A stretch of DNA of 32,000 nt from the NCBI GenBank assembly GCA_000025185.1, contig CP001848.1, positions 1,410,001-1,442,000 of the forward strand, in the 5' to 3' direction. The notes below the pieces were generated by a model, which did no database searches, was not told the DNA's origin, and saw nothing but the letters and a program-made list of their open reading frames with translations. How positions within the stretch are numbered: position 1 is the stretch's first letter; every line of letters starts with the position of its first letter. Source of the stretch: Pirellula staleyi DSM 6068. Lineage in GTDB: Bacteria > Planctomycetota > Planctomycetia > Pirellulales > Pirellulaceae. Shown piece after piece: positions 1 to 19,188 of this stretch. Both the position numbers and the translations under genes were made by a program.

Positions 1-67
1 CAACGATCCTCACGCTTTTTGCCGTTGAACTTGCTTCCCAGCGTCTACCTTCGTTAAGTACAGCCCC

Positions 68-1780
68 ATGTCCCAGCCAGCTTCGCCGGCGACTGAAATT
101 CCGGTGGAGCTGTTTCGCCAGATTCTGATTTGGCCGTTGCTGATTCATGCCCCTCATGGCGAATCAGCAATGGAATTAATGGATCTTGTAACGGACGAGC
201 TAGAGCGTCACTCGTGGCATTGGAATGATCGATCCGCAGGCCAAAGTGCTTCGCCGCTGAAGGGGCTTCCTTGGTATCAGGACGATCATGACTATTCGGA
301 GATCGTTTACTTCCACTCCTACGTGCGCGACTTTCTCTATGGAGGCGATGGAACACCGGCTAGCGAGCGACCACTTCGCGTCCTTCGTCGTACCGACATT
401 GCTTCACTCCTGTTAAAGGTTGATGAAGGTCGCGAATATCGGCTGAAGGTCGAACGTGTCGAAGCCTATCTGTTCGATTCAGGCATTCTGCAAGTCGTGG
501 TAGAAGTTGCCGCCCCGCAATTGGTATCCAAGTCGCCGACCGATAGTGAGCAGTTGCGGCCATTCATGCTCAGCGATGCACTCGATCTACAGAATGTGCT
601 GCGCATGGCTTTTCCGCGCCGCTGGAAGCCGAAAACTGGCATACCTTCGGAAACTCCACACCGAGCTTGTTGGCTCAACTCCGAGGGAAGTGAAATCGCC
701 GGGAGTGTTCAGGACTTTCTTAACCAGGAAGACTTTACTCGGATCGTGCGCGAGCAGGCCGAACTGCCGGCCGCCAAACACTGGCAGTATCTCGTCCAAC
801 CCCTGCCACTCTTTGAGCGACGGGTTTGCACTGGATTGTCGGTCAAGCAAATTGAAGACCAGCGTTTACCTTCGATGTCGTACATCGCTGTCCCTGATCC
901 GCGTTTGATTTCCGACGGCGACTTTGAGCGAATCGCCTTCTTCGACAGCGCCGGTCAGTCTTCGGTAGGTTCCTATTCCGATGAATTTCTAGTCGGTTGG
1001 GAAAAGGATCATGCTTACGACCGCTTTTGGCAACGACTCCCCAGCGAAGGCGGTCCTGAAGTTGCCCTGCATAACCAAATGATGCGAACTCGTTGGCTCT
1101 GCAGCGGCTATGGTTTTGCGGTGGTGGGTGCCAGCGGCGACAAGTTCTTCACTACTCAGATTGCAGCCAACTTTCGCCATCACTATTTTCGCATGGGGCT
1201 GATCGCCCATTTTCATCGTGCCAAGCTAATCTCACTTCGTGACCAACTTGCTGAAGCGACAAAACAGGTAGGTGAGAACTTCCGCAATCGCGTGATGGAG
1301 ATCCAGCGAAGCGCTACCATCTTTCGCGCCCGATTCTGGTTTCATGAGGTATCCACACAGCTTCAAGGTCGTGAGATTTTCACGTGGTGGTCCAATCGAC
1401 TCGGCAATCCATCGCTATTTGAGCATGTGATTTCCGACATCGAAGCTGCTGAGTCGCAAGTTCGAACCGAATTTGAAGCAGAAGAATCTCAAGACATTAA
1501 CCTCATCACACGCGTGGGTGGTGCGATTGGTATTCTGAGTATTGTACTCTCAATTGTAGCGCTAATCATTTCGCTGCTTGCACTGGAAGCCATTTCGCCA
1601 CTTAAGCAGTTTGCGATCATGCCAGCCAATCCATGGGACTGGACAGTTGCCAACCTCTGGCTTGGCCGTATCGCCTCGATCGCGTGCCCCCTATCAATTG
1701 TGAGCCTTTGGATTCTATTGGTCGTCTATGGTGGGCTTCGATATTACAAGAGCCATCGTCGTACTCGACGCTTGAGGTAG
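68..1780 (+). CDS. Membrane protein with CorA-like topology (large soluble N-terminal region, two C-terminal TM helices); candidate effector of the adjacent Cas10-like/RAMP module
   Basis: 570-aa ORF from ATG 68. It lies on the same strand as the next gene with a 29-nt gap. C-terminal hydrophobic helices GGAIGILSIVLSIVALIISLLAL and IASIACPLSIVSLWILLVVYGGL are followed by the basic tail KSHRRTRRLR. No GMN motif was seen. The functional label is inferred from topology and gene context only. Confidence 0.7.
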   Translation: MSQPASPATEIPVELFRQILIWPLLIHAPHGESAMELMDLVTDELERHSWHWNDRSAGQSASPLKGLPWYQDDHDYSEIVYFHSYVRDFLYGGDGTPASERPLRVLRRTDIASLLLKVDEGREYRLKVERVEAYLFDSGILQVVVEVAAPQLVSKSPTDSEQLRPFMLSDALDLQNVLRMAFPRRWKPKTGIPSETPHRACWLNSEGSEIAGSVQDFLNQEDFTRIVREQAELPAAKHWQYLVQPLPLFERRVCTGLSVKQIEDQRLPSMSYIAVPDPRLISDGDFERIAFFDSAGQSSVGSYSDEFLVGWEKDHAYDRFWQRLPSEGGPEVALHNQMMRTRWLCSGYGFAVVGASGDKFFTTQIAANFRHHYFRMGLIAHFHRAKLISLRDQLAEATKQVGENFRNRVMEIQRSATIFRARFWFHEVSTQLQGREIFTWWSNRLGNPSLFEHVISDIEAAESQVRTEFEAEESQDINLITRVGGAIGILSIVLSIVALIISLLALEAISPLKQFAIMPANPWDWTVANLWLGRIASIACPLSIVSLWILLVVYGGLRYYKSHRRTRRLR

Positions 1781-1809
1781 TTTCACCCTCCATCAAACAC
1801 ATTTACTGA

Positions 1810-3309
1810 ATGACGGTGTTTGTGATGCCAAGCTTTCTGCTAAGACTAGAAGCCGTCAACTTCAGCGAGTCCTGCTACGACACTTGCGACATTAGCACAA
1901 TTCGCGGCGGCTCGATGATGTTGTCGAATGCTCATGAGCTAGCTCGCGTCGTTCTGCCGCAGGAAATCCAGCACGAGCCGACAAGTTTCGGGGCTTCTCA
2001 TGCGATTTGGCAGTTCGAAGCTGCTGATGCAAATGCTGCAGAGAAAGTGCGCAACGATACTCTCCACGCACTAGCAAAACACAAACAGCTCCGACATGCG
2101 ACATTTGTTTGTGCGGTTGTCGCTAACGACGATGGTAGTGCCGATGCTTTACATCGATTGCGCATGCACAACCATTGGCGTCAGTATCAAGAGCCAACCG
2201 TTGTCCCTCCCGATCTACCCGATGCAAAAAGGCAAGGCAAGCGAATTTGCGAACTTGACCATGTACGTCCCGCCACGATGGAGATTCGAAAGGGAAACGA
2301 TAGCTATTGGGTCAGTACTAGCACGTACGATCGGCGTGTTTATGGCCGGAAGCAAAAGCGGATGTTCTACAAAGAACTCTGTGGGAGCGATCTCGCGGTT
2401 GTCCACGATTTGAGCGACCTCACGTCGCATCTTGAGTCGTCGCAGCATCGCCTCCATGGCAAGATGGCATTGATCTATATCGACGGGAATCAGCAGAGTG
2501 AGATGGCTGCTGATCTCAGCCTTGACCGGTTAAGCAAGTTTCGCCAATACGTTCGTGAGCAACATCGCCGGTTTCTTACTACCTTGCTTGAAGAGATTGT
2601 GCAGTTGATGCCCGCTCAGGGAAGCTCAAATGAATGGTTTCACTGGGACTCTGAGCAAAATGAACTTCAGGTTCGATTGGAAACGCTCCTTTGGGGCGGC
2701 GATGATATCGTCTTGGTAGTTCCCGCTTGGAAGGGATGGTATGTCGCGAGGAAATTCTACGAAGCAGCGCAAGGTTGGGAGTTTGGCGGCCAGAAGTTCA
2801 CTCATGCAACGGGATTAATCTACTGCAGCCACAAAGCACCCATCCAAGATATGCGGCGATATGCAGAAGACCTTGTTGTGCAGTGCAAGAAGACCAAGAA
2901 CAGCGAAGGCAACTATCAAGACTTAATGGGTTATGAGGTGCTGGAATCCATCGACGTAATTTCCAGTGACCTCGACCGTTGGCGGTCGGCCAGACTGGGA
3001 GAGTCAGAGAAGTCCGGGGCCGAAGCAATCGCCAGTGCATTGTTATTGAGCCCCGCTCAGATGGACGGCATAGAATCGATGATCCGGTCGATTCGAGTTG
3101 GCGTTGACGATCCTGACTCAATTCTGTCGCGTCGGCAAATCGAGAGGCGGGCGAGGAGAATGCAACACTCCATGATTGGCGATGAGCAATTTGATAGTGA
3201 CGTTACCAACTATTTTGCCGGTTCAGAGTTTGAGAAGATTGGTTTAGGCCCGCATTCACTGCGTGCCAAACTGTTCCACCTCACCGCAATGTGGGACTAC
3301 CTTACATGA
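1810..3309 (+). CDS. Minimal Cas10-like palm-domain nucleotide cyclase/polymerase (mCpol-like), GGDD intact, no HD domain
   Basis: 499-aa ORF. Motifs appear in Cas10 order. ISTIRGGSMMLSNA resembles the LRGRSxxL / LWAGSYLLS motif. KMALIYIDGNQQSEM is a candidate first metal-binding Asp strand. LLWGGDDIVLVVPAWKG carries GGDD at nt 2695-2706. THATGLIYCSHKAPIQDMRRYAEDLVVQCK resembles the Cas10 SaGi..h.k.P.......A...l..aK segment. The stop overlaps the next gene's start (ATGA at 3306-3309). Confidence 0.75.
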   Translation: MTVFVMPSFLLRLEAVNFSESCYDTCDISTIRGGSMMLSNAHELARVVLPQEIQHEPTSFGASHAIWQFEAADANAAEKVRNDTLHALAKHKQLRHATFVCAVVANDDGSADALHRLRMHNHWRQYQEPTVVPPDLPDAKRQGKRICELDHVRPATMEIRKGNDSYWVSTSTYDRRVYGRKQKRMFYKELCGSDLAVVHDLSDLTSHLESSQHRLHGKMALIYIDGNQQSEMAADLSLDRLSKFRQYVREQHRRFLTTLLEEIVQLMPAQGSSNEWFHWDSEQNELQVRLETLLWGGDDIVLVVPAWKGWYVARKFYEAAQGWEFGGQKFTHATGLIYCSHKAPIQDMRRYAEDLVVQCKKTKNSEGNYQDLMGYEVLESIDVISSDLDRWRSARLGESEKSGAEAIASALLLSPAQMDGIESMIRSIRVGVDDPDSILSRRQIERRARRMQHSMIGDEQFDSDVTNYFAGSEFEKIGLGPHSLRAKLFHLTAMWDYLT

Positions 3310-5291
3310 TTCATGTCGAATTGGAGATCAAGCTCACCCTGGTTGGCCCAGTGTTGACACAGGCAACCTCGGCAGGTCGACTTGGCCTCGATGCTGTGAT
3401 GGCACGCACTTCAGCAGGACATCCGTTCTTGCCCTACTCCCTAGTTCGTGGAAAGTTGCGTCAAGCTCTCGAAGAGGTTTCAAGCCCTCTTCAGAGCGAA
3501 GACCAAAGGAACGTTGAGCAGCTGTTGCCGATCTGGTTTGGTCCGAGATCTTCCTCAAAAGAAGCGGAGCAGGAGAGAGGTGCCTTATGCTTCTCTGATT
3601 TTATCTGCCCTGAGCCCAAAGATGATCTCGCTACACAGACGCGAATTCGTATCGATCGCGATACAGGTGCAGCAGAAGACAAGATGATGATGGTGTTCGA
3701 CTCACCATTTAAAGTTGGCGAAGAGGCTCCGTTTATAGGGAGAATTTGGTGCATTTGCGGGTCAGTGGGGCAGGCAGAATCCACGATCAAGTATGTGCTA
3801 GCTGGTCTCCGCTGGGTTCGTCAATTCGGAGCTGAAAAGACCATTGGTTTTGGATGCGTTTCGAATGTAGATCTACTTAAGGCAACCGTTACGGACCTTG
3901 CTCCACACTCGCAAGCAACCAGAAACACCATCACCCAAAAACTAAGCAACTTGCTAGCTAAGACGGGTTCGAAAGTAATCCACAGAAGCCGCAAACCGAA
4001 CGCTCCAGAAGATGGAGGTCACGGGACTCGCTTTCTGCTTCGAATTCAGCCGCAAGGCCCCATTTGTATTGGAGGACGACGTCGCAACGCCAATGTGTTT
4101 GAGTCAGAGGAGGTGATTCCAGGAGGTGTTCTGGTAGGAACGCTCGCCACGATGTGGCGGCAGGCAAACAACAAGCCTCCATCAGATTTTGTTGTCCAGC
4201 CTAGCGGTGGAAAATGGGATACTCTTGCAGAGCACTTTGAGAGGCTGGTGTTTTCTCATGCATTTCCGAGCAAGAGAGGATCGGGAATCAGGCCCTGTGC
4301 AATTCCTATGTCGCTAGTGTCAGCTGAACCACGCCATGGTGACATACCAGATTCACTTTTCGACGTTGCGCTCTGTAGTCGCCCGCGTCTGATTCCTGCT
4401 ATCGGCAGCAACCTGTTACGCCCACCCGTCTTTCAGTCCGATTGGAAGTCGCATGTTGTTGGTTCGAAAGCGAAAGCGATCTTTGGCTGGTCAAGTGTGC
4501 CAAGAGAGCTTCGTGTCAGAACGGCAATCGATATCGAAACTTTGCGTGCTTCCGATGAACAGCTTTTCGCCTATGAGATGGTGGTGCCTGACCAACATGA
4601 ATGGCTGGGCTATTTAGATCTGGAAAATGTCCCGCCTCAGGACCGAGCTATGTTGCTTGAGGAACTTGAATCGTTATTATCGGCCGGTCTTTGCCCAATT
4701 GGCAAGACAAAGATCGATGCCAGCATAAGCATCGAGCCCTATACTGCCGCCACGCCGATGTTGCCGTCGAGTTCCACACCGCTTCCCGGGAATGTTTGGG
4801 TGATTACGCTCCAGACACCAGCAATTCTGTGTGCGTCGACGGATTTAGAAGATCCGACAGGCGAGCAGTTGTTCGATGGCTACAGGAAAGCTTGGAAGAC
4901 ACTTTCGGATGAAAGTCTCGAACTTCAACGATTCTTTGCACGCCAATCTCTATCAGCACCTAGATTCGCCGGTCGATTGCCAACAAATTCCAGCGGACAG
5001 TTCTATCCCTTCGTCGTTACCGATGCTGGAAGCACCTTTGTATTGCGTGCAACAGGCGACGTTAGAGATGCACAACTCAAAGTCAAAGAATGGCTTAATC
5101 TGGGGATGCCTCTTTGCGACTATCTGTTGGGTGGCAGCCAAGCTGACAAAGCTGACAGAGATTGGCAGCGATCCCCCTATCTAAATCGCCATGGATATGG
5201 CGAAGTTGCCGTTAATCAACCCTGGTTGTTAGGTCACGATTCCAGCGTGGTGATGCCACAGCGTCTAGACGATGAGGAAGGTACGATATGA
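3306..5291 (+). CDS. RAMP-superfamily fusion protein (N-terminal Cas7-like unit plus a second RAMP unit, possibly Cas5/Csm4-Cmr3-like)
   Basis: The ORF track gives 3291-5291 with a GTG start. ATG 3306 forms an ATGA overlap with the upstream stop, so it is preferred. Unit 1 motifs are PFLPYSLVRGKLRQALEE, LPIWFGP, RIRIDRDTGAAEDKMM and the glycine loop FGAEKTIGFGCV. Unit 2 motifs are FLLRIQPQGPICIGG, VIPGGVLVGTLATMW and GLCPIGKTKIDA. The stop overlaps the next start (ATGA at 5288-5291). Confidence 0.7.
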   Translation: MIHVELEIKLTLVGPVLTQATSAGRLGLDAVMARTSAGHPFLPYSLVRGKLRQALEEVSSPLQSEDQRNVEQLLPIWFGPRSSSKEAEQERGALCFSDFICPEPKDDLATQTRIRIDRDTGAAEDKMMMVFDSPFKVGEEAPFIGRIWCICGSVGQAESTIKYVLAGLRWVRQFGAEKTIGFGCVSNVDLLKATVTDLAPHSQATRNTITQKLSNLLAKTGSKVIHRSRKPNAPEDGGHGTRFLLRIQPQGPICIGGRRRNANVFESEEVIPGGVLVGTLATMWRQANNKPPSDFVVQPSGGKWDTLAEHFERLVFSHAFPSKRGSGIRPCAIPMSLVSAEPRHGDIPDSLFDVALCSRPRLIPAIGSNLLRPPVFQSDWKSHVVGSKAKAIFGWSSVPRELRVRTAIDIETLRASDEQLFAYEMVVPDQHEWLGYLDLENVPPQDRAMLLEELESLLSAGLCPIGKTKIDASISIEPYTAATPMLPSSSTPLPGNVWVITLQTPAILCASTDLEDPTGEQLFDGYRKAWKTLSDESLELQRFFARQSLSAPRFAGRLPTNSSGQFYPFVVTDAGSTFVLRATGDVRDAQLKVKEWLNLGMPLCDYLLGGSQADKADRDWQRSPYLNRHGYGEVAVNQPWLLGHDSSVVMPQRLDDEEGTI

Positions 5292-8200
5292 CCACTCAAA
5301 TAGCGACTCGGTATCAGCTGAAGTCACGCTGGAAGATCACCGGAACCCTAACCACAACTAGTCCGATGCATATCGGGAGTGGTGATTCGACCACCCATCC
5401 GCAGCTTGTAAACGAAGCTTCTGAAACCGATAGCACTATCGCCCACAAATCAATAGAAGTGGCTGCAATTGTTCGTGACTTCCAAGGTAAGCCCATCATT
5501 CCGGGCTCAGCGCTAAAAGGTGTGCTTCGGAGTTGGGCTGAGAAACGGTACACCAACTATCGTCCCCAGATCAGCAAGATCTTTGGAGACCTTGACTGCA
5601 GTACTCCCCAAGCTCGCTCGGGTCGTGCGGTATTCAGAAATGCGATACTGATCCCACCTAAGGACGACTTAATAACTAGATACAAAAACTTTGTCCCCTA
5701 TTGGCGAACTGATAAGTTAGCTGGAATACTCAGTCATGTTTGCATTGATCGCCACAACGGTACTGCGTCCGCCAATAAACTATTCTTCGAGGAGTTCTTG
5801 CCCGAGGGGATTTCCTTTAAGGTTGAGATTTTTGCCGAGCAGCTTGATGAATCGGACGTTCAATTATTGCTAAGCGTTCTAGTTCATGGCGTTTCCGATG
5901 ACAGTGAACCAATACAATTTGGTTCGAACACGGCCAATGGCTGGGGGCAAGTATCGTGGAGCGATGTGTTCGTATCTCGCAATATCGATAACTCACATGT
6001 TGAATTGGATCTAAACACGCTTTCATTTAGACAGCGGTGTAACAATCTAACAATCGATGCGTTGCCGGCGCCACCTCCACCCGATCACATTAAGACTATT
6101 CCACTCTTGTTTCAGTGCCGGGGCCCTTTTCTGGTCAACGACGGGTCGCGAGTGAAGAGGAAGGAAATGAGTGAGGCCGAGAAAGAGCGGCACCGGAACT
6201 TTACCCCTCTGAGACGCGCCGACGGCAGCGTATGGTTGCCAGCGTCGTCGTTTCGAGGAGTTCTGCGTAGCCGAGCAGAATTCATTCTTCGCTCGCTCGA
6301 TCCTAGCGCAACAGGCGATCCCAACAAGCCACTCAGCAAAGACAACCCCATTGAAAAGATCTTCGGCATGACCGGCCACGCCAGCCGTCTGCAAATCGAC
6401 GAGTTTAGTAGTTCAACCACTGACCCTAAGCTGCGGCATCAAGACTTTGTTGCGATTGACCGATTCACCGGAGGTGCTGCAGACACCGCAAAGTTCGACG
6501 CCGAGTATGCTGACCACCCCACCTTTTCGAGCCGACTCCGCCTCAACACCCATGGGCTTTCCGAATCAGATATTGCGATTCTTGCTGCTACGTTGCGGGA
6601 CTTGACGAGAGGAGACCTGCAGTTTGGCTTTGGAGTCGCGAAGGGTTATGGCGAATTAGTGGGCAATTGGACAACTGACGCAGAGGCCTGGGCACGAAAA
6701 CAACTGCAGCATCTTCCAGTCGCAAAACGCTCGGAGATTCCAAATAGCTCAGGCCCTAGCCCCTCGCCTACTAAGGCAAATGTCATCGAGGGCAAACTTA
6801 TATTTCAAAAGATCAGGGGTGAGGACAAGCCCGTACGTCGCCTAGTGTATCGAAACAAAAAAAACGAATGGACAACCCAGGCTCCCACACCGATCGTGTT
6901 CGCCTCACTGCCGCAGTCACTGCAAACCAACACGAGTCCAGAAATAGAAGTCGATTTCGAATGGGCGAGTCCAAACAAGCCCACAAGAGTTCGAGAGCGC
7001 GGCACGCACCTACGAATCGCGGCAAGGCATAATTTTGCTGCAAACCAAGCAAATGACTATTTTGCTCACGCTTACTACTTCCTGCGACACGAAGAAAGAA
7101 GAAACCTAGGTGGGAATGGCAAGCCATCGGCCTGGCCAAATGATTTGGCAGACCGAAATCCCTATGGACATGAGCGTTATCAAGAGGGGTGTTATTCAGG
7201 AACAATAAGTGTTCGATTGACGACGAAGACGCCTCTCCTACTGTGCGACGATCTCACTCGCCGTGAAACGCAACCTGGGCACTATGAGTACGATATGAGG
7301 GGCGATGATGAAGGGAACCCGATTCTTCACTCATCGTCAGTTCGAGGAATGCTACGCAGTGCCTATGAGGCAATCACGAACTCCCGAATGGGGGTGTTTA
7401 CAGGACACGATGACCGACTTGGGTTGCGAATGCAGACCCAAGAGGGGCTCGCACTAGTACCCTGTCGGATCGAGAGCGGAAAAGTTGTCCTCCTTCCAGG
7501 TACGTCCCAGATTACTGTTTCTAGGCCGAGTGGTCCAATGTATGCCGCGTGGCTACCGGCATATCCTGAAACGGGAGCATTAAGGCTCAGCAATACAGGG
7601 AATCTACCCCAACACCGTCAACACGTGAGCTGTTGGATTGAGCTTTGGGAGCGAACTCCATGGGTGGAAGTTCGCAACGATATAAACCATGGTCGGTTTG
7701 CTGAAGATAAAAAGTTTAGCTATTGGAAGGTTGTGGCGATCGCACCGCACGGACAACATCTCAGCAAACCCTCTAGCTCAAGCGAATGCCCTCGAATTGA
7801 TGGCACAAATCATCACACTCCTAAAGGCGAACCGATTCGTTTTATTGAGAATGGCTATGTCTGCTCTACCAACTACAACTTTGATAAGAAACATGACGAA
7901 AGAGTCTTCTTTGTTGACAATAGTAGTGAGTTAACACCGATTCCCCTATCAGAATCGCTTGTTCAGCAGTGGGGGAACCTAATTCGTAATTATCGACTGA
8001 ACGAAGATCTAGCTAAGGATAAAAAACGGCCTGGGGCCCTCACGAAGGCTGGTTGGTCTCGGCATATGAAAGATGATCGAGAGCTTACCTTAGCCGATGG
8101 CAGCTTGGCCTACGCGCGACTCGATGCGAAAGGTAGTGTCATCGAGCTCTTCCCGGTGATGATTGCGCGAAAACTGTATCCACGCAGCCCTTGGTGTTCG

Positions 8201-9106
8201 ACTCCGCGTTCACTTCTGCCGGCTACGAGTCGTTCTATGCTTTCGCCTGCAGATCGGCTGTTTGGTTGGGTCAATCAGGAATGCGTGGATAAAGACAGCC
8301 CTGCTTACCGTTCGCAATTGAGAGTGGGAGTTGTTGAATGCAAAACAAATGAGGCAATTAGATCATTCAATGTGCCGATGGTGGTTCCAATACTATCTCA
8401 ACCCAAACCTTCCCAGGGAAGGTTCTACCTAGGCGACAAGACAGGGCGCACACAGCCCCCCGGAGGATCGAAAGAAGATCGTGGATATTCAGGGACCAAT
8501 CGAATTCGTGGTCCTAAGGTTTACCCTCACCATGCGGCGTTTTCGCTAGATAGAGTTGGAAAGTCAGCTGGGCAAGCTGGAAATCAGAATCGTTCCATTA
8601 CTGGCTGTGTTAGAGAGGGTGTCGAGTTCAAATTTAATCTACATGTTCTTAATCTGTCTCGACTGGAAGTCTCTGCCCTTTTTTGGTTGCTAACCTTGCC
8701 GCCGAGTCACTATCTGCGACTCGGCCTGGGAAAGCCGCTTGGCTTCGGAAGTGTGAGCTGTGAGATCGTTAACACTGAAACTCGCATCTCCGATGGAAGC
8801 GACTGGATTGCTTCGCTTAAGGAGTGGGATGCATTACCGCCTGGAATTGATGCTACCGCAATTCAGTCGATGGCTGCAGAGTATGAATCCCAGATTGGAG
8901 AAGTCAATCCCACTCTCATGCAATCGTTTTTGCAAATAGCAAAAGGTTTTGGATGTGTTGAAACTGGATATCCACCAAGTCCCGACTCAAGAACGCTAGG
9001 TGGCGAGCATTTTAAGTGGTTTGCAGCGAATGAACGCAATAGAGCCGGAGCGAGGTCACTTCCTGACCCATCGGATAATGATCCGTTATTGCCAAAGATG
9101 CTATAG
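5288..9106 (+). CDS. Giant RAMP fusion with three Cas7 (Csm3/Cmr4)-like domains, the third carrying large insertions
   Basis: 1272-aa ORF. Unit 1: SPMHIGSGD, IPGSALKGVLRSWAEK (nt 5498-5533), ISKIFGD, ICIDRHNGTASANKLF, FGSNTANGWGQV. Unit 2: LPASSFRGVLRSRAEF (nt 6236-6274), IEKIFGMTG, AIDRFTGGAADTAKF, LQFGFGVAKGYGEL. Unit 3: YFAHAYYFLRHE (resembles the PYNFVPL-type start of type III-D RAMPs), YSGTISVRLTTKTPLLL, ILHSSSVRGMLRSAYEAI (nt 7322-7363), ADRLFGWVNQ, LRLGLGKPLGFGSV. Confidence 0.85.
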   Translation: MTTQIATRYQLKSRWKITGTLTTTSPMHIGSGDSTTHPQLVNEASETDSTIAHKSIEVAAIVRDFQGKPIIPGSALKGVLRSWAEKRYTNYRPQISKIFGDLDCSTPQARSGRAVFRNAILIPPKDDLITRYKNFVPYWRTDKLAGILSHVCIDRHNGTASANKLFFEEFLPEGISFKVEIFAEQLDESDVQLLLSVLVHGVSDDSEPIQFGSNTANGWGQVSWSDVFVSRNIDNSHVELDLNTLSFRQRCNNLTIDALPAPPPPDHIKTIPLLFQCRGPFLVNDGSRVKRKEMSEAEKERHRNFTPLRRADGSVWLPASSFRGVLRSRAEFILRSLDPSATGDPNKPLSKDNPIEKIFGMTGHASRLQIDEFSSSTTDPKLRHQDFVAIDRFTGGAADTAKFDAEYADHPTFSSRLRLNTHGLSESDIAILAATLRDLTRGDLQFGFGVAKGYGELVGNWTTDAEAWARKQLQHLPVAKRSEIPNSSGPSPSPTKANVIEGKLIFQKIRGEDKPVRRLVYRNKKNEWTTQAPTPIVFASLPQSLQTNTSPEIEVDFEWASPNKPTRVRERGTHLRIAARHNFAANQANDYFAHAYYFLRHEERRNLGGNGKPSAWPNDLADRNPYGHERYQEGCYSGTISVRLTTKTPLLLCDDLTRRETQPGHYEYDMRGDDEGNPILHSSSVRGMLRSAYEAITNSRMGVFTGHDDRLGLRMQTQEGLALVPCRIESGKVVLLPGTSQITVSRPSGPMYAAWLPAYPETGALRLSNTGNLPQHRQHVSCWIELWERTPWVEVRNDINHGRFAEDKKFSYWKVVAIAPHGQHLSKPSSSSECPRIDGTNHHTPKGEPIRFIENGYVCSTNYNFDKKHDERVFFVDNSSELTPIPLSESLVQQWGNLIRNYRLNEDLAKDKKRPGALTKAGWSRHMKDDRELTLADGSLAYARLDAKGSVIELFPVMIARKLYPRSPWCSTPRSLLPATSRSMLSPADRLFGWVNQECVDKDSPAYRSQLRVGVVECKTNEAIRSFNVPMVVPILSQPKPSQGRFYLGDKTGRTQPPGGSKEDRGYSGTNRIRGPKVYPHHAAFSLDRVGKSAGQAGNQNRSITGCVREGVEFKFNLHVLNLSRLEVSALFWLLTLPPSHYLRLGLGKPLGFGSVSCEIVNTETRISDGSDWIASLKEWDALPPGIDATAIQSMAAEYESQIGEVNPTLMQSFLQIAKGFGCVETGYPPSPDSRTLGGEHFKWFAANERNRAGARSLPDPSDNDPLLPKML

Positions 9107-9210
9107 CGTACCGCTATTTGGATATTAGCGATCGAATAGGCCACTATAGTCCCGGTAATGATGTTTTGCTATTGAAGCTGTCTCGATGACTTGTTTCCGT
9201 CGTTATGTCA

Positions 9211-9238
9211 TGAATGAATGAATGAATGAATGAATGAA
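9211..9238. repeat. Tetranucleotide microsatellite (TGAA)x7
   Basis: Direct reading: tgaatgaatgaatgaatgaatgaatgaa, about 100 nt after the RAMP operon stop. It places TGA stops in all three + frames. Confidence 0.95.
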
Positions 9239-10036
9239 AAGGTCAAACTGAACTCACTGACTGGCAGATGAGAGTGTCAGGCACTACGTATCTAATTGAT
9301 TCAACTTTGCTCTGGATCTCGAGCATAGTCTTGAGTATCTCGCCAGTTCATGCTGGTTCTCCCTGAATAGGGTGTCACGTACCATTACGTAACGGAAGTG
9401 TTACGAAGGTATCTTCAGTCCTACAATCGTGCTTTACTGGTAGCAAGTTCCAGATTCGCAGCAGAATTAGATAGTAACTCCCACATTCCGAAGGTGTATC
9501 GATGTCAAAGGCGCTTCACCTGTACCAAAAGGAGTGAGAGCCAATATCCGGTAGTGTAGGCCATCGGTTAGTTACAGTTACGGTGTTTTGGTTGCGGCAA
9601 ACCGTACAGTGTAATTTCTGCTCGGGACTTATCACCAGAGTACCGCTCGAAAAATGGGGTGGGGGGATGGTTCAATCCTGGAAGGCTTGGGTCCCTCGGG
9701 TCCTTTGTGCATTCAAAATTGAGAGTACAAGTGCCATATCGGACGGTGTTTGCTATCGCTCAATCCACATCACTGCATCGCTGATGCCCTCGACGTGCAG
9801 TGAATCGCTACTCGGTTGGCACAAAATGAGTAGAGTTTCGGGCCAACTACCGCCAAAATCTTGCGTCGCAATGCTTGGGCTGGTCACTTCCCATTGATTT
9901 GGAGCGTCGTCCTGCACAACCGTTCGGCAATTGCATCGGACTCTTGTCTTGTCGTCGCAAAATCAAGCCATTGCCCTTTGGGATGGCGAGTTGTTGTTCT
10001 GCTTTGAAGGGAGCGCATTCGACTTTCTGCCTGCTC

Positions 10037-10116
10037 GCGACCAACGAGTTGTTGACTTTTCTAGATTTTTCGTGAAACCCGTAGATGGTGGAAGTAAGAG
10101 CGGTTTGGGATAATGT
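10037..10116 (+). repeat. Diverged direct repeat, copy 1 (core GAAACCCGTAGATG at 10074-10087)
   Basis: GCGACCAAC...TTCTAGATTTTTCGTGAAACCCGTAGATGGTGGA...GCGGTTTGGG aligns with copy 2 over about 80-95 nt with indels. The two copies share an exact 14-mer. Confidence 0.6.
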
Positions 10117-10396
10117 GCCCCCAACCAACTCCAGCAATCTGCAGACGCAGGGCAGGTTCGACGACTGTTCAACTTGGCTTGAGGGGCTCTTTCAGTACAG
10201 TTGCCGTAAGTTATGACCTACATGTGACCGAGGTTGCGGCGATTCAACGGGCGAGTTCCCTTTGCGTAGAGTGCTGCTCACTCGAATTTTCGTGCTCTTG
10301 GACTGATCACTAGTAGTTATCTCTGCGCATGACGAGACTTACCTGCGGGTCGTTAGGTGAAGTGAATGCCGAAACCGATGTCGCTCGAAGTCCATA

Positions 10397-10490
10397 GCGC
10401 CAACAATCTACGACTAAGCAGGGTTTCTCGAAGATTTTGGAAACCCGTAGATGATGAGTATTCGGTGTGGTGTAGCCGATTTGGTTGTCA
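10397..10490 (+). repeat. Diverged direct repeat, copy 2 (core GAAACCCGTAGATG at 10440-10453; local stem GGGTTTC 10421-10427 / GAAACCC 10440-10446)
   Basis: GCGCCAAC...GGGTTTCTCGAAGATTTTGGAAACCCGTAGATGATGAG...GCCGATTTGG lies 366 nt downstream of copy 1. Weaker partial matches to the TCGAA(G)ATTTT(C)G part occur near 10281-10296 and 10681-10698. Confidence 0.6.
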
Positions 10491-10517
10491 CCGTGATCAG
10501 CTGTCACCTGGAAATCT

Positions 10518-10937
10518 CTATCGGCCCAAGCGAGAAGCTAGGACCAGTGCCAGGACAGCATTTCGGCAGTCTTCGGAGAGCTTGTCCCAGGATTCAATGA
10601 TCTGGAGGAGTCTCGGCTCGAAGGAAGGTACGTCGACCCTTGGGGAGGGGAGTGAAATTGTTGGTTGAAGGAGGCGACTATCTTTTGAAGATTTACTGTT
10701 ACTGTCTAATAACGGATTACTTTCGGTTCCAATTCCCTTGTTTTGATGATTTCTAGTGCGCGCGTCGGATTCTGCGTCGGTTGATTCGCAAAATGCCTTA
10801 GTTCCCTTGGAATATGGAGGGTGTTTGTCTCCTACCGGGGGAGCTCCTGTTTTTTCAAGAAAGTGCCGCGTTTCGCGGCATTTTTTGCGCGCCGACCGAA
10901 TTCTCCTCACGGTCCGGCAATGCTCATTCGCGCTCAA
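10518..10937 (-). CDS. Hypothetical protein (weak call)
   Basis: 139-aa ORF. Only the C-terminal part looks protein-like (PRLLQIIESWDKLSEDCRNAVLALVLA). The terminator-like hairpin at 10864-10886 lies inside the ORF, which argues against the full length. Confidence 0.25.
   Translation of the reverse strand: MSANEHCRTVRRIRSARKKCRETRHFLEKTGAPPVGDKHPPYSKGTKAFCESTDAESDARTRNHQNKGIGTESNPLLDSNSKSSKDSRLLQPTISLPSPRVDVPSFEPRLLQIIESWDKLSEDCRNAVLALVLASRLGR
10864..10886 (+). terminator. Intrinsic (rho-independent) terminator, possibly bidirectional
   Basis: TGCCGCG (10864-10870), TTT loop, CGCGGCA (10874-10880), then TTTTTT (10881-10886). An A-rich run (aagaaag) precedes the stem, so the minus strand also sees a weaker T-tract. 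Confidence 0.55.
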
Positions 10938-11398
10938 AAATGCTCAGTTGCGCTCGGTTAGAGCGCACAGAAACGCGCACAGCCTTTTTCCCCCTCTTTC
11001 GGCCCCCTTCCGGATTTCTTCGAGCGGGGACTCACCAATTCGCGGGCCGCCTCGGTCCAAGCCTCTCTGCTTCTCGCTTCTGGTCGACGGTGGGGCCTTC
11101 GAAGCCCTCTGCAGCATTTCGTGACGACAGTTTGCCTCGTTAGAGCTGAAAACTGGTCCATCGCGGTCCAGGACACACAACTCCAGTCGATCCCAGAACG
11201 ACTTGGCGATTCTTTGTCGGAAGTCGTTTGTGTGACCACTTCTACTGCAATTCGGGGGGCGATGAGCATTTATTTTTGAACGGCATTTGACATATTGAGA
11301 TTCATCGCTCTTATAAGTGTTATGTTGTTCATGTGAGAGATCATCTGATTGAAAAAAATTGTTAGTAACCCAGTTGAGTATCAATAGGAGAATAAAAG

Positions 11399-11629
11399 AT
11401 GACTAATAGCTATCAAAATGATGTCAAAAACGAAAGACGCTATGTCACTCTTAGAGAAGCATCGGAGCTGTATCCACTGTCTGAGATGACATTTCGCCGC
11501 TTAGCTTCGGCTGGGAAAATTACGCTGTACCGGCCGACTCCGGGCAAATTGTTCCTGAGTGTCGACGAGATCGAGTCGCACTTTCGCACTTCTGCAGGAG
11601 CGCGAGGGAAAAAATGCCCCGCCAGTTAA
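11399..11629 (+). CDS. Excisionase/AlpA-like helix-turn-helix DNA-binding protein (MerR-type HTH_17-like)
   Basis: 76-aa ORF. RYVTLREASELYPLSEMTFRRLASAGKITLYRPTPGKLFLSVDEIESHF matches the short excisionase-family HTH pattern. AGGAG lies 9 nt upstream of the ATG, in an AT-rich upstream region (TTGACA at 11287, TATAAG at 11312). Confidence 0.7.
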   Translation: MTNSYQNDVKNERRYVTLREASELYPLSEMTFRRLASAGKITLYRPTPGKLFLSVDEIESHFRTSAGARGKKCPAS

Positions 11630-11850
11630 TGCTACTGACTGCGAGGGACCTCAACTCGCACTCTTGGCACGAGCCTAGAAACGGATTTTGCAATGAATGC
11701 GCACGAAAAAAGCCGCCCGAGACTCACAATCTCGAACGGCCAGCAGATGAAGCGCGAAGTTGAGAATGACAAAATCGCTTCAGTCTGTCAACTGTTTCGC
11801 AGCGATAATCTGGCAGTGTTCCATCCCTTCGATCTGCGGAGGGCCTTCTA

Positions 11851-12843
11851 ATGGAATACCCACGACGTCTATCGTTTTTCTCCAATCGATTTGCGGACGT
11901 TTTTCATAGCTCGGGGGCAATCGACGAGCTTGGAAGCACGGCAGCGCTGCTGCTCTGGGTTGTATCCAGTGCCGAGGACAAGACTAGGTATCACGGACCA
12001 GTCAAGTTCTGGGACAGCGACCTTAAACAGAAGGTAGGGTTGTCGAGCCAGCGCCGGTTCGCGGCTGTCCGAAAGCTGTTGGTTGATGCGGGGTGGTTGG
12101 TTTACTACCGATCCACACAACGAGCGATCGGCTCGTATTGGGTGGTGATACCCCAACGCTTCCAAGAGCCGATCGATTTTGAACCCACAGCAGAAACTAT
12201 CGAAGCGAATGGCGCGGAAAACTGCGCCAATGAATTCGAGAATGGCGCACAAAAACGCGCCAATGGTGCGAATGGCGCACTGAATGGCGCACTGAATGGC
12301 GCAGAAAAGTGCGCCCCTTCTATTCCTACTCCTACTCCTAATACCTCTCTCTCTAAAAAAGAGAGTGAGAGAGAGAGGGAAGCGCAACCATCTAAAGCGC
12401 ATCCCCCAGCAGAGGCGATCGACTTAGAGCTTGCCCAGCAATTCTTCAGCGACCTCCGGAAGCTCGATGAGCATCGAGCAGAGCCTGACTTCGAGACTTG
12501 GGCTCATGAGTTTGAGCAACTACGCAAGGCCGGTAAGCCGATCGCGCAGATCCGCGAAGTGATGGACTTCGTTGCAGGCCATGTGAAGCACTGGCGAACT
12601 CGAATCGAGAGCCCGCAATCACTTCGAGAAAACTGGGACAAGCTTGCCCTCGAGTGCGGAGCAGCCAAGAAGGCAAGGGCGGCAACCTGCTCTGAGATTC
12701 CCGATCTCACCGACGACGACGTAATCAAACCACCGCAACATCGCGGCCGCCGACTCTACGGCAATCGCCAGTTGCCCAGCATGGCCGGTGCTAATTACGA
12801 CCCCGACGCACACCTGAAGGATCCCGATCATGGCACCTTCTAG
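11851..12843 (+). CDS. Hypothetical mobile-element protein with internal NGA-type tandem repeat; function unknown (replication/DNA-binding role is speculation)
   Basis: 330-aa ORF with ordinary composition. The central tract ANGAENCANEFENGAQKRANGANGALNGALNGAEKCA is encoded by repeated AATGGCGCA units. The stop TAG (12841-12843) coincides with the IS target site. Confidence 0.65.
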   Translation: MEYPRRLSFFSNRFADVFHSSGAIDELGSTAALLLWVVSSAEDKTRYHGPVKFWDSDLKQKVGLSSQRRFAAVRKLLVDAGWLVYYRSTQRAIGSYWVVIPQRFQEPIDFEPTAETIEANGAENCANEFENGAQKRANGANGALNGALNGAEKCAPSIPTPTPNTSLSKKESEREREAQPSKAHPPAEAIDLELAQQFFSDLRKLDEHRAEPDFETWAHEFEQLRKAGKPIAQIREVMDFVAGHVKHWRTRIESPQSLRENWDKLALECGAAKKARAATCSEIPDLTDDDVIKPPQHRGRRLYGNRQLPSMAGANYDPDAHLKDPDHGTF

Positions 12844-13704
12844 AGCCTGTTATTGACTTATCTGCTTGCAATTGCTGTAGTTAGGGGATGAAACACACGA
12901 CAGGGAAGTCGTATCCCAGCGACGTAACGGATGCGGAGTGGGAATTCCTGCTCCCCTACTTAAGCCTCATGCGCGAGGATGTGTCGCAGCGTGCCTATTC
13001 ACTGCGCGACCAGTTTAACGCCATGCGCTACGTGGTGAAAACAGGAATCCAGTGGGACTTCCTGCCGCATGAAATGCCTCCGTGGCGGGCCGTCTATCAA
13101 CAAATGCGACGCTGGTTCGAAGCGGGAGTCTTTGAGGAAATTGCGCAAGACCTCAGGCTGATGGTGCGTCTTTTGGAAGGACGTGACGAACAGCCAACCG
13201 CTGTGATCATGGATGCTCGAACGCTGCAATCGACTCCTGAAAGTGGAGGCCGCGCGGGATACGACGGCGCGAAGAAAAAGAAGGGTTCGAAGGCCAATAT
13301 TGCCGTCGATACACTGGGAAATCTGCTGGCGGTTTACATCACTGCAGCCAATGAGCAAGACCGCGACCAAGTCGCCATCCTCTCGCAGAGAGTGCAAGAG
13401 GTGACGGGCAGCAACGTGGAGATAGCGTACGTCGATCAAGGCTATACGGGCGCCGCAGCAGCCGAGCAGGCTGAAGCATCCTCGATAAGATTACAAGTTA
13501 TAAAACATACCGAGACCAAGCGAGGCTTTGTCCTATTGCCACGCCGCTGGGTTGTTGAGCGCACCTTTGGTTGGCTGAGTCGCTTCCGCCGTCTCGCGCG
13601 TGATTATGAGAGACTCACCGTCACGCTCACCAACTTCCACTGGCTCGCCTTCCTCACCATACTCCTCGCAAAAATCTACAGACAAAGTCAATAACTGGCT
13701 CTAG
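12841..13704 (+). mobile_element. IS5-family insertion sequence (single-ORF DDE transposase) with terminal inverted repeats at a CTAG target
   Basis: The left end TAGAGCCTGTTATTGACTT (12841-12859) matches the reverse complement of the right end AAGTCAATAACTGGCTCTA (13685-13703) at 18 of 19 positions. The flanks read ..cttCTAG[..]CTAGcga, consistent with either a TA or a CTAG target duplication. The exact IS ends are therefore ambiguous by 2 nt. Confidence 0.85.
12888..13694 (+). CDS. IS5-family DDE transposase
   Basis: 268-aa ORF. The N-terminal region YPSDVTDAEWEFLLPYL...GIQWDFLPHEMPPWRAVYQQMRRWFEAGVFEEI is typical of IS4/IS5 transposase N-domains. DDE-region motifs are AVIMDARTLQS, ANIAVDTLGNLL, AYVDQGYTG and VVERTFGWLSRFRRLARDYERL. 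Confidence 0.9.
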   Translation: MKHTTGKSYPSDVTDAEWEFLLPYLSLMREDVSQRAYSLRDQFNAMRYVVKTGIQWDFLPHEMPPWRAVYQQMRRWFEAGVFEEIAQDLRLMVRLLEGRDEQPTAVIMDARTLQSTPESGGRAGYDGAKKKKGSKANIAVDTLGNLLAVYITAANEQDRDQVAILSQRVQEVTGSNVEIAYVDQGYTGAAAAEQAEASSIRLQVIKHTETKRGFVLLPRRWVVERTFGWLSRFRRLARDYERLTVTLTNFHWLAFLTILLAKIYRQSQ

Positions 13705-17222: not shown

Positions 17223-17519
17223 ATGGAAACCGTTCCGACAATCGATCGCGACAAACTGATTAACGACCTTCGAAGTCGTCTACCTAGTGCTGCGATTTCA
17301 ATCGAGACGATCAGTCTCGATTACGGATCGTGGGAGATCGCGGTCAAGCAAAACGGCCGTTGGGTGAACATTGCTTGGGGGCCGCTATCAGGTTTCGGCA
17401 CGACCGATTTGGATAACCTGCGTGAAGATAGCAACCCGTTCGGGTCGCACGACTGGCCAATGGAAAACGCAGAAGCCGCGATTGAGTTCGTCGTCCGCGT
17501 CGTCGGCCCCTGCCAGTGA
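17223..17519 (+). CDS. Cassette ORF, hypothetical small protein
   Basis: The ORF track gives 17169-17519, but its first 18 codons translate attC3. ATG 17223 (METVPTIDRDKL...) lies 6 nt after GTTAGGC. Confidence 0.6.
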   Translation: METVPTIDRDKLINDLRSRLPSAAISIETISLDYGSWEIAVKQNGRWVNIAWGPLSGFGTTDLDNLREDSNPFGSHDWPMENAEAAIEFVVRVVGPCQ

Positions 17520-17568
17520 ATGTTGGTCCGTTTGCCAATAAAACCATGATGCTGAGTGAGGCTCGAAC

Positions 17569-17886
17569 TTGAAATGGCTGGTACCGTGGCATCCGGTTGG
17601 TGAAGATTCCGGCCAAGTTGGCGGAATGGAGCAGGAGTTGAAACGCGAACTCTCCGCCGATCATCCCTTGTTCGGTTTGCCGGTTAAAGCGCTCGCTCGT
17701 CGCCAGGATTGCGATGATGTTCTGTTTGCCCTTCAAGATGGAACCGGGCGAGTCGCGGTTGTTCATCTGACATGGACGCGCAACCCACCGGAGCGTCCAC
17801 CATGGCCGCACACTACCTTGTTTCCCAGCCTCGAAAATTGGGCGGCCAAAGGCATGTATGCCGATACCGAGGAATTTTGTGAGTAG
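17569..17886 (+). CDS. Hypothetical small protein (second ORF of the same cassette)
   Basis: 105-aa ORF with a TTG start (alternative ATG at 17626, MEQELKRE). It has ordinary composition (..DDVLFALQDGTGRVAVVHLTWTRNPPE..). No attC separates it from the previous ORF. Confidence 0.55.
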   Translation: MKWLVPWHPVGEDSGQVGGMEQELKRELSADHPLFGLPVKALARRQDCDDVLFALQDGTGRVAVVHLTWTRNPPERPPWPHTTLFPSLENWAAKGMYADTEEFCE

Positions 17887-17906
17887 ACGCTGATCGATAA
17901 GTTTAC

Positions 17907-17997
17907 GGCGAACAACCGCATGCACCGGACCGCCGTTCCGGCTTTGGTTTCACCATGGCTCATCGCCAGCGGCGGCCGGTGATGCAGAACGTTAGGC
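17907..17997 (+). repeat. attC-like site 4
   Basis: GGCGAACAACCGCATGCACCGGACCGCCG...CGGCGGCCGGTGATGCAGAACGTTAGGC. The core is GTTAGGC at 17991-17997. Confidence 0.8.
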
Positions 17998-18008
17998 GGT
18001 TCGAATCC

Positions 18009-18206
18009 ATGCGGGCGAAGATCGCCGACGATCAGCGGACAACCATCGACGATGCGATTGTCGCCAATCTGAAGCTTCCTGCGATCCAGGAGATTCGTCA
18101 GTTGACGGGGGCAAGTTTGGCCGAACGCTTTGCCAAGCTTTGCTTAACCGTTCCAGAGCGTTTTGACTGCACAGAGGACGAATACTGGGCAGGCTTTTAC
18201 TCGTAA
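18009..18206 (+). CDS. Cassette ORF, hypothetical small protein
   Basis: The ORF track gives 17955-18206, but the upstream codons translate attC4. ATG 18009 (MRAKIADDQRTTIDD...) is the first start after the site. Confidence 0.55.
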   Translation: MRAKIADDQRTTIDDAIVANLKLPAIQEIRQLTGASLAERFAKLCLTVPERFDCTEDEYWAGFYS

Positions 18207-18212
18207 CTTTGC

Positions 18213-18297
18213 GTCTAACAAGTCGTTGCACCTGACCGCCGCAACGTCTAGCGTGATGGAGAGTCAATCGGGCGGCCGGTGATGCAGAAAGTTCGGC
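18213..18297 (+). repeat. attC-like site 5
   Basis: It starts with a perfect inverse core GTCTAAC (18213-18219), followed by AAGTCGTTGCACCTGACCGCCGC, and ends GGCGGCCGGTGATGCAGAAAGTTCGGC (18291-18297). Confidence 0.8.
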
Positions 18298-18374
18298 GAA
18301 TGTGCAACGATATCTTGACCAGGGCGTGTGCGGGGACGCGACCGTGAAGCTCAACATCGGATCGAAGAGGTGTC

Positions 18375-19052
18375 GTGGGAGAAATCCTGCTCCAGATAGG
18401 CACGCGCGAGCCACACGATCGGTGGCCTTATACGGTTCCGGTGACCCCGCTTTGTATAATCCGCATAACCAGCGACTGCAGTGGACGAGCCGCGCGTGCC
18501 TGGAAAGTTGCCATCGATTCTTGTGCGTTCTGCCCCGTACGCTGCTCGACACTGAGCGGCAGCGCTCGGCGACAGAGGCGATCCGTGGCTGAAGACCTCA
18601 AGCATTTGTGGACGACAGCAGCCCTTGCGGCAGCACTGCTGCACGGAACCCGCTTGCCAGGCGAGCCGGACGGACCACCACCTTGGCCGGTTTACTTGGA
18701 CCACACCTATCGTCGACAGACGGCTGCTCAGGTTTTGGGCGAACGAGCCGGCCACTCTGTTGATTGTTTGGGACCGCTTCTCTACGTAGCAGCTCACGAC
18801 GAGGACGTTCGGCTGCGGTGCTTGGAGCAAGTGTTCGCTTCTGGCTGGGTTGGCCTGGATGCGTTCTTGGTGGCCATGACGTTCGACGCCATGGATAGTG
18901 TTCGGCAACTCGCTTTGAAAAGGTTGGCCCTCCGCGAGTTCCCATCACTGCACGCTGTTGCTACTCGTCTGCTCAATGACCCGGACTCAGGCATACGGGA
19001 ACAAGCGGCGGGCATGCTCACCGGGGCGTCCGGGCCTCGTTGGCGGCTTTAG
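18375..19052 (+). CDS. HEAT-repeat-like protein (start uncertain; in-frame GTG 18585 is an alternative)
   Basis: The C-terminal 150 aa carry HEAT-like units AHDEDVRLRCLEQVF, AMDSVRQLALKRLA and LNDPDSGIREQAAGML. The N-terminal 70 codons of the ORF are not convincing. Confidence 0.55.
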   Translation: MGEILLQIGTREPHDRWPYTVPVTPLCIIRITSDCSGRAARAWKVAIDSCAFCPVRCSTLSGSARRQRRSVAEDLKHLWTTAALAAALLHGTRLPGEPDGPPPWPVYLDHTYRRQTAAQVLGERAGHSVDCLGPLLYVAAHDEDVRLRCLEQVFASGWVGLDAFLVAMTFDAMDSVRQLALKRLALREFPSLHAVATRLLNDPDSGIREQAAGMLTGASGPRWRL

Positions 19053-19059
19053 CACGCAC

Positions 19060-19156
19060 GCCGAACAAGTCGCTGCACCTGACGCGTCGGCTTATACTAG
19101 GGTTTTTGAATTCAATGTCTCGCCCGCCGCCGCGCAGGTGAGCTCAATCGTTCGTC
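19060..19156 (+). repeat. attC-like site 6
   Basis: The arms GCCGAACAAGTCGCTGCACCTGACGCGTCGGC and GCCGCCGCGCAGGTGAGCTCAATCGTTCGTC are complementary with bulged bases. Confidence 0.7.
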
Positions 19157-19188
19157 GATGATGCCGCCTTTAGCCACAAGGTATTGAG

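Follow-up and report, generated by a model that had tools for sequence, protein, structure and literature searches.

We analysed a 32,000-nucleotide stretch of the Pirellula staleyi DSM 6068 genome (contig CP001848.1, positions 1,410,001 to 1,442,000; hereafter the window), which carries near its beginning a four-gene cassette encoding, in this order, a CorA-like membrane protein, a Cas10 and the RAMP fusion proteins Cas7-5 and Cas7x3. The cassette genes and the Cas10 domains described below all lie on the + strand. The Cas10 gene is an open reading frame (ORF) of 499 amino acids (aa) with an ATG start, located at nucleotides (nt) 1810..3309 and deposited as ADB15822.1 (WP_012910087.1) under the label "hypothetical protein". 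As shown below, it encodes the large subunit, Cas10, of a type III-D2 effector; the protein is an ordinary member of that family, except that its nucleotide pocket is altered in a clade-specific way. Since the full-length homologues all begin at the position of M6 of the query ("MP..."), the true start is probably ATG 1825, which would give a protein of 494 aa. The original prediction, made from the sequence alone, had described the ORF as a minimal Cas10-like protein, and both the ORF and the motifs quoted in it were found in the places given: IRGGSMML at residues 31-38 (nt 1900-1923), ALIYIDGNQQ at residues 220-229 (nt 2467-2496), GGDD at residues 296-299 (nt 2695-2706, by direct translation) and the segment THATGLIY...VVQCK at residues 331-360 (nt 2800-2889). 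It had also called the protein much shorter than a typical Cas10; the protein is indeed small for a Cas10, but within its own family, with a median length of 488 aa, it is of the usual size.

The Cas10-like identity was borne out by sequence and by fold. A phmmer search of the PDB sequences aligned residues 8-43 and 56-428 with chain B of 9WXH, named "Cas10" (also in 9WXI and 9WXJ), with an E value of 2.4e-41 and approximately 30% identity, and the PADLOC Cas10 model matched residues 8-406 (E 1.5e-25). Pfam Cas10-Cmr2_palm2 (PF22335) matched residues 226-363 with E 8e-6 and 26.4 bits, just under its 27-bit cutoff, and NCBIfam Csm1 (TIGR02578) reached 19.9 bits versus a cutoff of 170. The Pfam and NCBIfam cutoffs miss these proteins, and standard annotation keeps them as "hypothetical". 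The homologues collected numbered 369 at E<=1e-3 in a word-indexed search and 551 clusters at 50% identity, at E<=1e-30, in an exhaustive one. An AlphaFold2 model of the Cas10, built from 120 homologues, had a pLDDT of 93.9 and a pTM of 0.92, and all 50 PDB matches listed by Foldseek for it were Cas10, Csm1 or Cmr2 chains. Among those listed the best was the Synechocystis III-Dv Cas10 (E 1e-16; query-normalised TM score 0.65-0.71, the match spanning most of the query model), the closest fold in a library that predates 9WXH, and all the others were classical Csm1/Cmr2 proteins, at E values of about 1e-11 to 1e-9. No unrelated GGDEF or reverse-transcriptase (RT) fold, the outcome named beforehand as contrary to a Cas10, was among these 50 matches, and the query gave no Pfam match to GGDEF (PF00990) at E<=1. 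An assignment to type III-E or III-I was rejected, as the gRAMP models scored 143.6 versus 700 bits and 50.9 versus 800 bits. Recognition of the family as the subtype III-D2 Cas10 reportedly dates from 2021. The 2025 classification named the III-D systems that lack HD and are linked to CorA as an open question, which was answered in 2026 when one III-D2 representative, referred to here as the Gb homologue, was characterised structurally and biochemically (Mitsuda 2026, PMC13294483). A small HD-less Cas10 beside RAMP fusions is, then, already explained by the known III-D2 family.

The Cas10 of that representative, GbCas10, is organised as Palm1-Linker-Palm2-C-terminal domain (CTD), its CTD being a five-helix Cas11-like bundle (PMC13294483). 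The order of secondary structures in our model matches that of GbCas10, the modelled architecture of the query being Palm1-Linker-Palm2-Cas11-like CTD without an HD domain. Palm1 covers approximately residues 8-127 (nt 1831..2190), with borders that we infer from the secondary structure of the model, and is followed by a linker of about 90 aa (approximately residues 128-215, nt 2191..2454, borders likewise inferred) that takes the place of the classical D2/zinc-finger domain. No four-Cys zinc site was found in this linker, whose C147 is invariant among the homologues; R180 and L201 in it are both conserved and align to R240 and L264, which contact the anti-tag in GbCas10 (PMC13294483). The catalytic Palm2 domain (approximately residues 216-380, nt 2455..2949) leads into a C-terminal helical domain equivalent to the Cas11-like CTD or D4 (approximately residues 381-499, nt 2950..3306), with model helices at residues 388-394, 404-411, 415-433, 441-451, 459-468 and 483-494. 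The first Palm1 strand begins at residue 8 of the model, which pairs in the alignment with residue 2 of the solved homologue, leaving no room for an N-terminal HD domain, and the sole HD dipeptide of the protein (residues 199-200) falls in an unconserved column of the homologue alignment. An HD domain is present in only 3% of the III-D Cas10s (PMC11229360). The absence of the HD nuclease had thus been read correctly from the sequence; the accompanying claim that most accessory domains are missing did not hold, as the model shows two palms, the linker and the C-terminal helical bundle.

Residues of GbCas10 were mapped onto the query by HMMER alignment and family-guided MAFFT placement, the chain numbering being the paper numbering plus 20, as verified on at least 20 residues. 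The pairwise HMMER alignment set Gb Q186 on query E128, which we rejected as a misplacement; the family-guided MAFFT alignment puts it on the invariant Q125. The Gb metal ligands, D286/G287 and GGDE345-348, correspond to D225/G226 (nt 2482-2487) and to the GGDD of Palm2. In 120 homologues D225, G226, G296, G297 and D298 are invariant and position 299 is always D or E, in agreement with the original view that the cyclase palm motifs are intact. The residues that contact S-adenosylmethionine (SAM) in the Gb enzyme, E8, N11, S29, S123 and Q186, correspond in Palm1 to E14 (nt 1849-1851), N17, S35 (of RGGS), S63 (of G61-A62-S63, on Gb G121-S123) and Q125 (nt 2182-2184). N17, S63 and Q125 are each conserved in 120/120 homologues and E14 in 116/120, and position 35 is Ser in 62 and Gly in 56 of the 120, Ser being found in 16/16 members of the clade to which P. 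staleyi belongs. The residues needed for SAM-AMP synthesis by the Gb enzyme (E8 plus Q186, D286, D347 and E348) are represented by E14, Q125, D225, D298 and D299, which vary little or not at all across 120-236 family members. Moreover, the E14/Q125 pair replaces, family-wide, the residues of the III-A acceptor site that bind the triphosphate of adenosine triphosphate (ATP) (D253/K379 in L. lactis Csm1), and the adenine-pocket residues F306 and G346 of GbCas10 are kept as F244 and G297. Because metal ligands and SAM-acceptor residues are both conserved, a SAM-nucleotide messenger is, by analogy, the likely product, and the acceptor-site signature that replaces the triphosphate-binding residues, together with the CorA neighbour, makes it the best-supported one. 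A signalling function, with a hint at "another nucleotide conjugate" and at SAM as a substrate, had been proposed for the protein from the outset; signalling appears to be its most likely role, and the hint fits what is known of the characterised homologue (PMC13294483).

The RAMP operon setting, also noticed originally, was confirmed, with Cas7-5 and Cas7x3 directly downstream of Cas10. The order CorA-like, Cas10, Cas7-5, Cas7x3, with separate cas11 and csx19 genes absent, is the III-D2 layout; it is that of the Gb locus (PMC13294483) and is kept in related loci. The first gene, Psta_1139 (570 aa, nt 68..1780), matched the PADLOC CorA-like model PDLC01043 over its full length (E 8e-132), and the idea that this upstream ORF is the missing HD/N-terminal half of a split Cas10 was consequently rejected. 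The protein combines a soluble sensor region at its N terminus with long helices and, at the C terminus, two transmembrane helices. Homologues of it at E values of 1e-52 to 1e-30 carry the Pfam CorA domain (PF01544), and its AlphaFold2 model, built with database homologues (pLDDT 89.6), had CorA structures as its top three Foldseek PDB matches, although these were weak (E 4.6e-3). In every locus of the P. staleyi clade that was read, the CorA-like gene lies upstream of Cas10, in one of them (L086) apparently as two separate ORFs, and a homologue was present in 29 of the 80 genome-scan loci.

Downstream, the Cas7-5 fusion (Cas7.1 plus Cas5/Csx10, nt 3306..5291) was identified by phmmer (E 1.1e-96 to 9wxh_C) and by the PADLOC model CAS-III-D effector_G5 (E 1.7e-64), and the Cas7x3 protein ADB15824.1 (three fused Cas7 domains plus an insertion domain, nt 5288..9106) by TIGR03986 (302 bits versus a 161-bit cutoff). 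Cas7x3 contains three RAMP stretches, with phmmer E values of 8.6e-113 to 8s9t_E and 1.2e-57 to 9wxh_D. Its match to the 9WXH Cas7x3 covers mainly residues 13-469, and its C-terminal half, residues 618-1269 (Cas7.4 plus the insertion domain), matches the Synechocystis III-Dv chain 8s9t_E far better, which hints at a mosaic ancestry of this RAMP fusion. ATGA stop/start overlaps at 3306-3309 (Cas10/Cas7-5) and 5288-5291 (Cas7-5/Cas7x3) translationally couple the three effector genes. In view of the first overlap, Cas7-5 most likely starts at ATG 3306; its conserved catalytic Asp is then residue 29 and aligns to D29 of the solved homologue. The mechanically called start, GTG 3291, is probably wrong. 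In the related loci, Cas7-5 follows Cas10 in essentially every one that is long enough, and a Cas7x3-type gene is present in most (73/84 loci).

In the characterised complex, residue W351 of Cas7-5 is required for the synthesis of SAM-AMP2 (PMC13294483). The 7-aa insert that carries it, "YPWPFIR", is missing from the query Cas7-5 (at about nt 4330-4400) and from all P. staleyi-clade loci; among 76 related Cas7-5 proteins, just 4 have it (L007, L041, L051 and L073) and 72 do not. Without W351, a single-adduct messenger rather than SAM-AMP2 would be expected from the P. staleyi complex. As the insert is confined to a few gammaproteobacterial loci, dual-messenger signalling with SAM-AMP2 is, judging from these alignments, probably not general for III-D2, and perhaps no more than a small subgroup of gammaproteobacteria uses it.

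Taken together, we consider that the locus is best explained, with a probability of roughly three in four, by a III-D2 Cas10 that makes SAM-AMP or a close analogue for the adjacent CorA-like effector. Cas10, Cas7-5, Cas7x3 and CRISPR RNA (crRNA) would form an RNA-guided complex, in which the binding of a non-self target RNA would place the 3' anti-tag in the Cas10 linker channel and shift Palm2 relative to Palm1. The composite site would then join the 3'-OH of SAM, held in the Palm1 acceptor site by E14, N17, S35, S63 and Q125, to the alpha-phosphate of a nucleoside triphosphate, the donor being most likely ATP, bound in the Palm2 site with D225, GGDD and two Mg2+. SAM-AMP or its analogue would be sensed by the CorA-like protein encoded directly upstream, whose response would arrest growth of the infected cell, and the Cas7-5 aspartate, by cleaving the target RNA, would switch synthesis off. 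Homology, fold, operon and the conservation of catalytic and acceptor residues are what we observed in P. staleyi; for the product, the allostery and the CorA response, the scheme would follow the Gb homologue. There, the cognate RNA anti-tag enters the linker channel, Palm2 shifts, and SAM plus ATP yield SAM-AMP and then SAM-AMP2, both of which act through CorA to arrest growth; ATP alone gives no product (PMC13294483).

Several observations weigh against this explanation. The P. staleyi Cas10 is only about 30% identical to GbCas10. The CorA-like Psta_1139 lacks the GMN motif, which is present in CRISPR-associated CorA family members of loci L014, L023, L071, L069 and L061; distant family members in related loci have GYFGMNF and match PF01544. 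No CRISPR array, cas6, cas1/2 or toxin-antitoxin (TA) module was found in the window (nt 1-32000). Finally, the donor pocket is remodelled. The query falls in a monophyletic clade of 16 sequences on a long stem, with planctomycete members (P. staleyi and relatives), whose members are 40-57% identical to it and which makes up 16 of the 236 family sequences collected and about 6 of the 551 clusters at 50% identity. Relative to GbCas10, the query pocket carries the changes W124->H64, F290->Q229 (nt 2494-2496), G291->S230, Q292->E231 and D307->R245 (nt 2542-2544). Both F290->Q229 and D307->R245 were found in 16/16 clade members and in 0/217 others. In the Gb enzyme, D307 lies 3.6 A from the adenine N6 and is essential, D307A being inactive (PMC13294483). 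With two of the Gb donor-nucleotide contacts replaced, ATP as the donor is not assured, and the same complex, with its SAM acceptor site kept, might use another nucleotide, most plausibly GTP. The P. staleyi clade would then conjugate SAM to a nucleotide other than AMP, giving for example SAM-GMP, to be read by a co-diverged CorA sensor. Only 8 of the 499 positions separate the clade from the 217 other members, and 5 of these 8 are GbCas10 ligand contacts (L12, F290, Q294, D307 and E348; post-hoc hypergeometric P of about 1e-5), the clade pocket being more polar (H/Q64, Q229, S230, E231, R245). In GGDEF cyclases, too, base specificity depends on the corresponding position of the helix (D344 of PleD; Ser in Hypr GGDEFs). 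However, E231 is fixed in 16/16 clade members where Lys is found in 91/217 others, and R245 in 16/16 where Asp is found in 198/217, so that the change may be a compensatory charge swap from K...D to E...R, or a relocation of the acid that reads N6, with ATP remaining the donor. Gln can also read adenine N6/N7, the adenine-pocket residues F244 and G297 are kept, and we know of no Cas10 with a non-adenine donor. We therefore regard a switch of donor as possible but unlikely. If it holds true, Cas10 products would gain a third class, paired with a CorA sensor to match, and the coherent, clade-fixed remodelling of the pocket offers a cheap and direct test of non-ATP donors in Cas10 enzymes.

SAM-AMP or a close analogue also has to be weighed against quite different products. 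That the protein is a conventional cyclic oligoadenylate (cOA) synthase like Csm1/Cmr2, with ATP in both sites, is very improbable: the GGDD is the classical Cas10 motif, and the closest fold in the library, the Synechocystis III-Dv Cas10, has been discussed as a cOA producer (10.1101/2022.06.13.496011), but the family-wide E14/Q125 pair in place of the III-A triphosphate-binding residues, the failure of the Gb homologue to make anything from ATP alone, and a CorA-like neighbour, in a window whose scanned ORFs matched neither CARF nor SAVED, all speak against it. The original prediction had placed the protein closer to the minimal polymerase mCpol than to classical Cas10. Taken literally, this would make it a stand-alone, Panoptes-like polymerase that produces a constitutive decoy nucleotide independently of the RAMP proteins, and the small size, the missing HD domain and the adjacent membrane protein would suit such an enzyme. 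The comparison fails, however, since mCpol has a single palm and the query has two in one chain, with a linker and a Cas11-like CTD; no mCpol match was found in Pfam at E<=1, Cas10 is translationally coupled to Cas7-5 with RAMP genes following in most related loci, and R180 and L201, which align to anti-tag contacts, are conserved. We give this reading next to no credence. A further possibility concerns the state of the locus and is compatible with a SAM-AMP-making III-D2 Cas10: the genes could be an orphan, perhaps decaying effector cassette in a horizontally acquired island that no longer confers immunity. Besides the missing array, cas6 and adaptation genes, the GC content is 49-52.5% for nt 1-12000 versus 53-58% beyond, and the low-GC stretch ends near an IS5-family transposase (nt 12888-13694; NF033580, E 2.7e-57), which suggests a horizontally acquired island; the downstream ORFs (9-19 kb) had no counterparts in 88 related loci. 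Yet all four cassette ORFs are intact and their catalytic residues conserved, and a relative, L083, likewise has no array within 21 kb. For the P. staleyi genome, 2 CRISPR repeat regions are reported (PMC3035237), and a survey of CRISPR-Cas systems associated with RTs places the species in its RT tree as well as in its Cas1 tree (PMC5513706); a supply of crRNA in trans is therefore conceivable. An orphaned cassette seems to us decidedly unlikely.

The searches of the window for arrays and RNAs (TRF, a direct-repeat search, the 37-nt repeat of a relative, and Rfam) were all negative; the position of cas6 and the TA pair in the Gb locus corresponds to the region before nt 68, the sequence read being nt 1-32000. 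Other loci of the same clade are better equipped. In L081 (GCA_003427375.1), the four-gene cassette is flanked by CRISPR arrays at 2196-4470 and 17439-20000, with about 30-37 units of the 37-nt repeat GTTTCCATCCTTGTTTTGTTGGATGAGGCTCTTCGAC in opposite orientations, so the clade is genuinely CRISPR-linked. Beside the four-gene cassette, other relatives of the clade have RT-Cas1/Cas2 (L087), Cas6-RT-Cas1 (L088) or an HTH plus PIN TA pair (L086). A further member of the family, of 584 aa, is encoded by the 692-kb plasmid pTM1 of Tistrella mobilis (L089; NC_017957.2, 403619-412182); it is the one homologue that turned up in an annotated plasmid record, and RefSeq labels it "hypothetical protein". 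Three RAMP genes come after it, and a type I restriction-modification system and an integrase lie alongside.

Beyond Cas7x3, a 2.7-kb stretch (nt 9107-11850) contains no ORF of at least 150 aa, the ORFs scanned in it having no confident Pfam match, and a perfect (ATGA)x7 microsatellite lies at 9210-9238, about 100 nt past the Cas7x3 stop; the equivalent position in L081 is occupied by a CRISPR array. The downstream ORFs (9-19 kb) gave no informative Pfam match except a weak one to HTH_17 (E 8e-4) for a 76-aa ORF at 11399-11629. HTH_17 proteins also occur near the cassette in L083 and L086, paired in the latter with a PIN_3/VapC50_C toxin, and the P. staleyi ORF, for which no PIN partner was seen, may be the remnant of a TA module. 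At 12207-12319, an unannotated 330-aa ORF (11851-12843) without a family match contains short GAATGGCGC(N) repeats in tandem, their periods being 12 and about 30-33 nt. The rest of the window (19189-21015, 24151-25611 and 28143-31801) encodes a WD40 protein, two sulfatases and a FecR/Laminin_G protein, typical of planctomycetes and unrelated to the cassette.

Among known systems, the closest is that of GbCas10 (PMC13294483), with which the query shares the HD-less Palm1-Linker-Palm2-CTD chain, the CorA, Cas7-5 and Cas7x3 partners, the metal ligands and the SAM-acceptor residues. GbCas10 is longer (572 versus 499 aa) because of an insertion of about 67 aa in Palm1, which the query lacks, as do most family members; it has GGDE where the query has GGDD, and a different donor pocket. 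The Gb locus also differs in the W351 of its Cas7-5 and in its cas6, VapBC-like TA pair and array, none of which is present in the window. The Synechocystis III-Dv Cas10, the best fold match in the library, is likewise HD-less and ends in a small-subunit-like helical domain; it is, however, only 13-14% identical to the query, belongs to a system with Cas7-Cas5-Cas11, Cas7-2x and Csx19 and no CorA, and is discussed as a cOA-type enzyme. In its proposed chemistry, with SAM as acceptor, ATP as donor and CorA as effector, the P. staleyi protein would resemble the Cas10 (Cmr2) of the Bacteroides fragilis III-B system, the first SAM-AMP synthase (Chi et al. 2023, PMC10600005), in which acidic or polar residues also replace the triphosphate-binding residues of the acceptor site. 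That enzyme belongs to the III-B lineage, works with separate Cmr subunits and contacts SAM through D70/E151 instead of the E/Q pair, and its loci encode off-switches (NrN, DEDD or SAM-AMP lyase) that were not seen in the present case. The mCpol of Panoptes has in common with the query a Cas10-type palm, a GGDD-like motif, the lack of an HD domain and a membrane effector partner, in its case a 2TM-beta protein (PMC12657230), or else a CARF-TM partner. It differs in being a single, dimerising palm that is constitutive, makes 2'3'-c-di-AMP and is neither RNA-guided nor part of a RAMP operon (PMC12657230, PMC12657218). Classical Csm1 and Cmr2 of types III-A and III-B share with the query the two-palm cyclase core and a D4-like C-terminal domain, but they measure approximately 750-1000 aa, carry an HD nuclease at the N terminus together with a D2 zinc finger, bind ATP in both sites and produce cOA.

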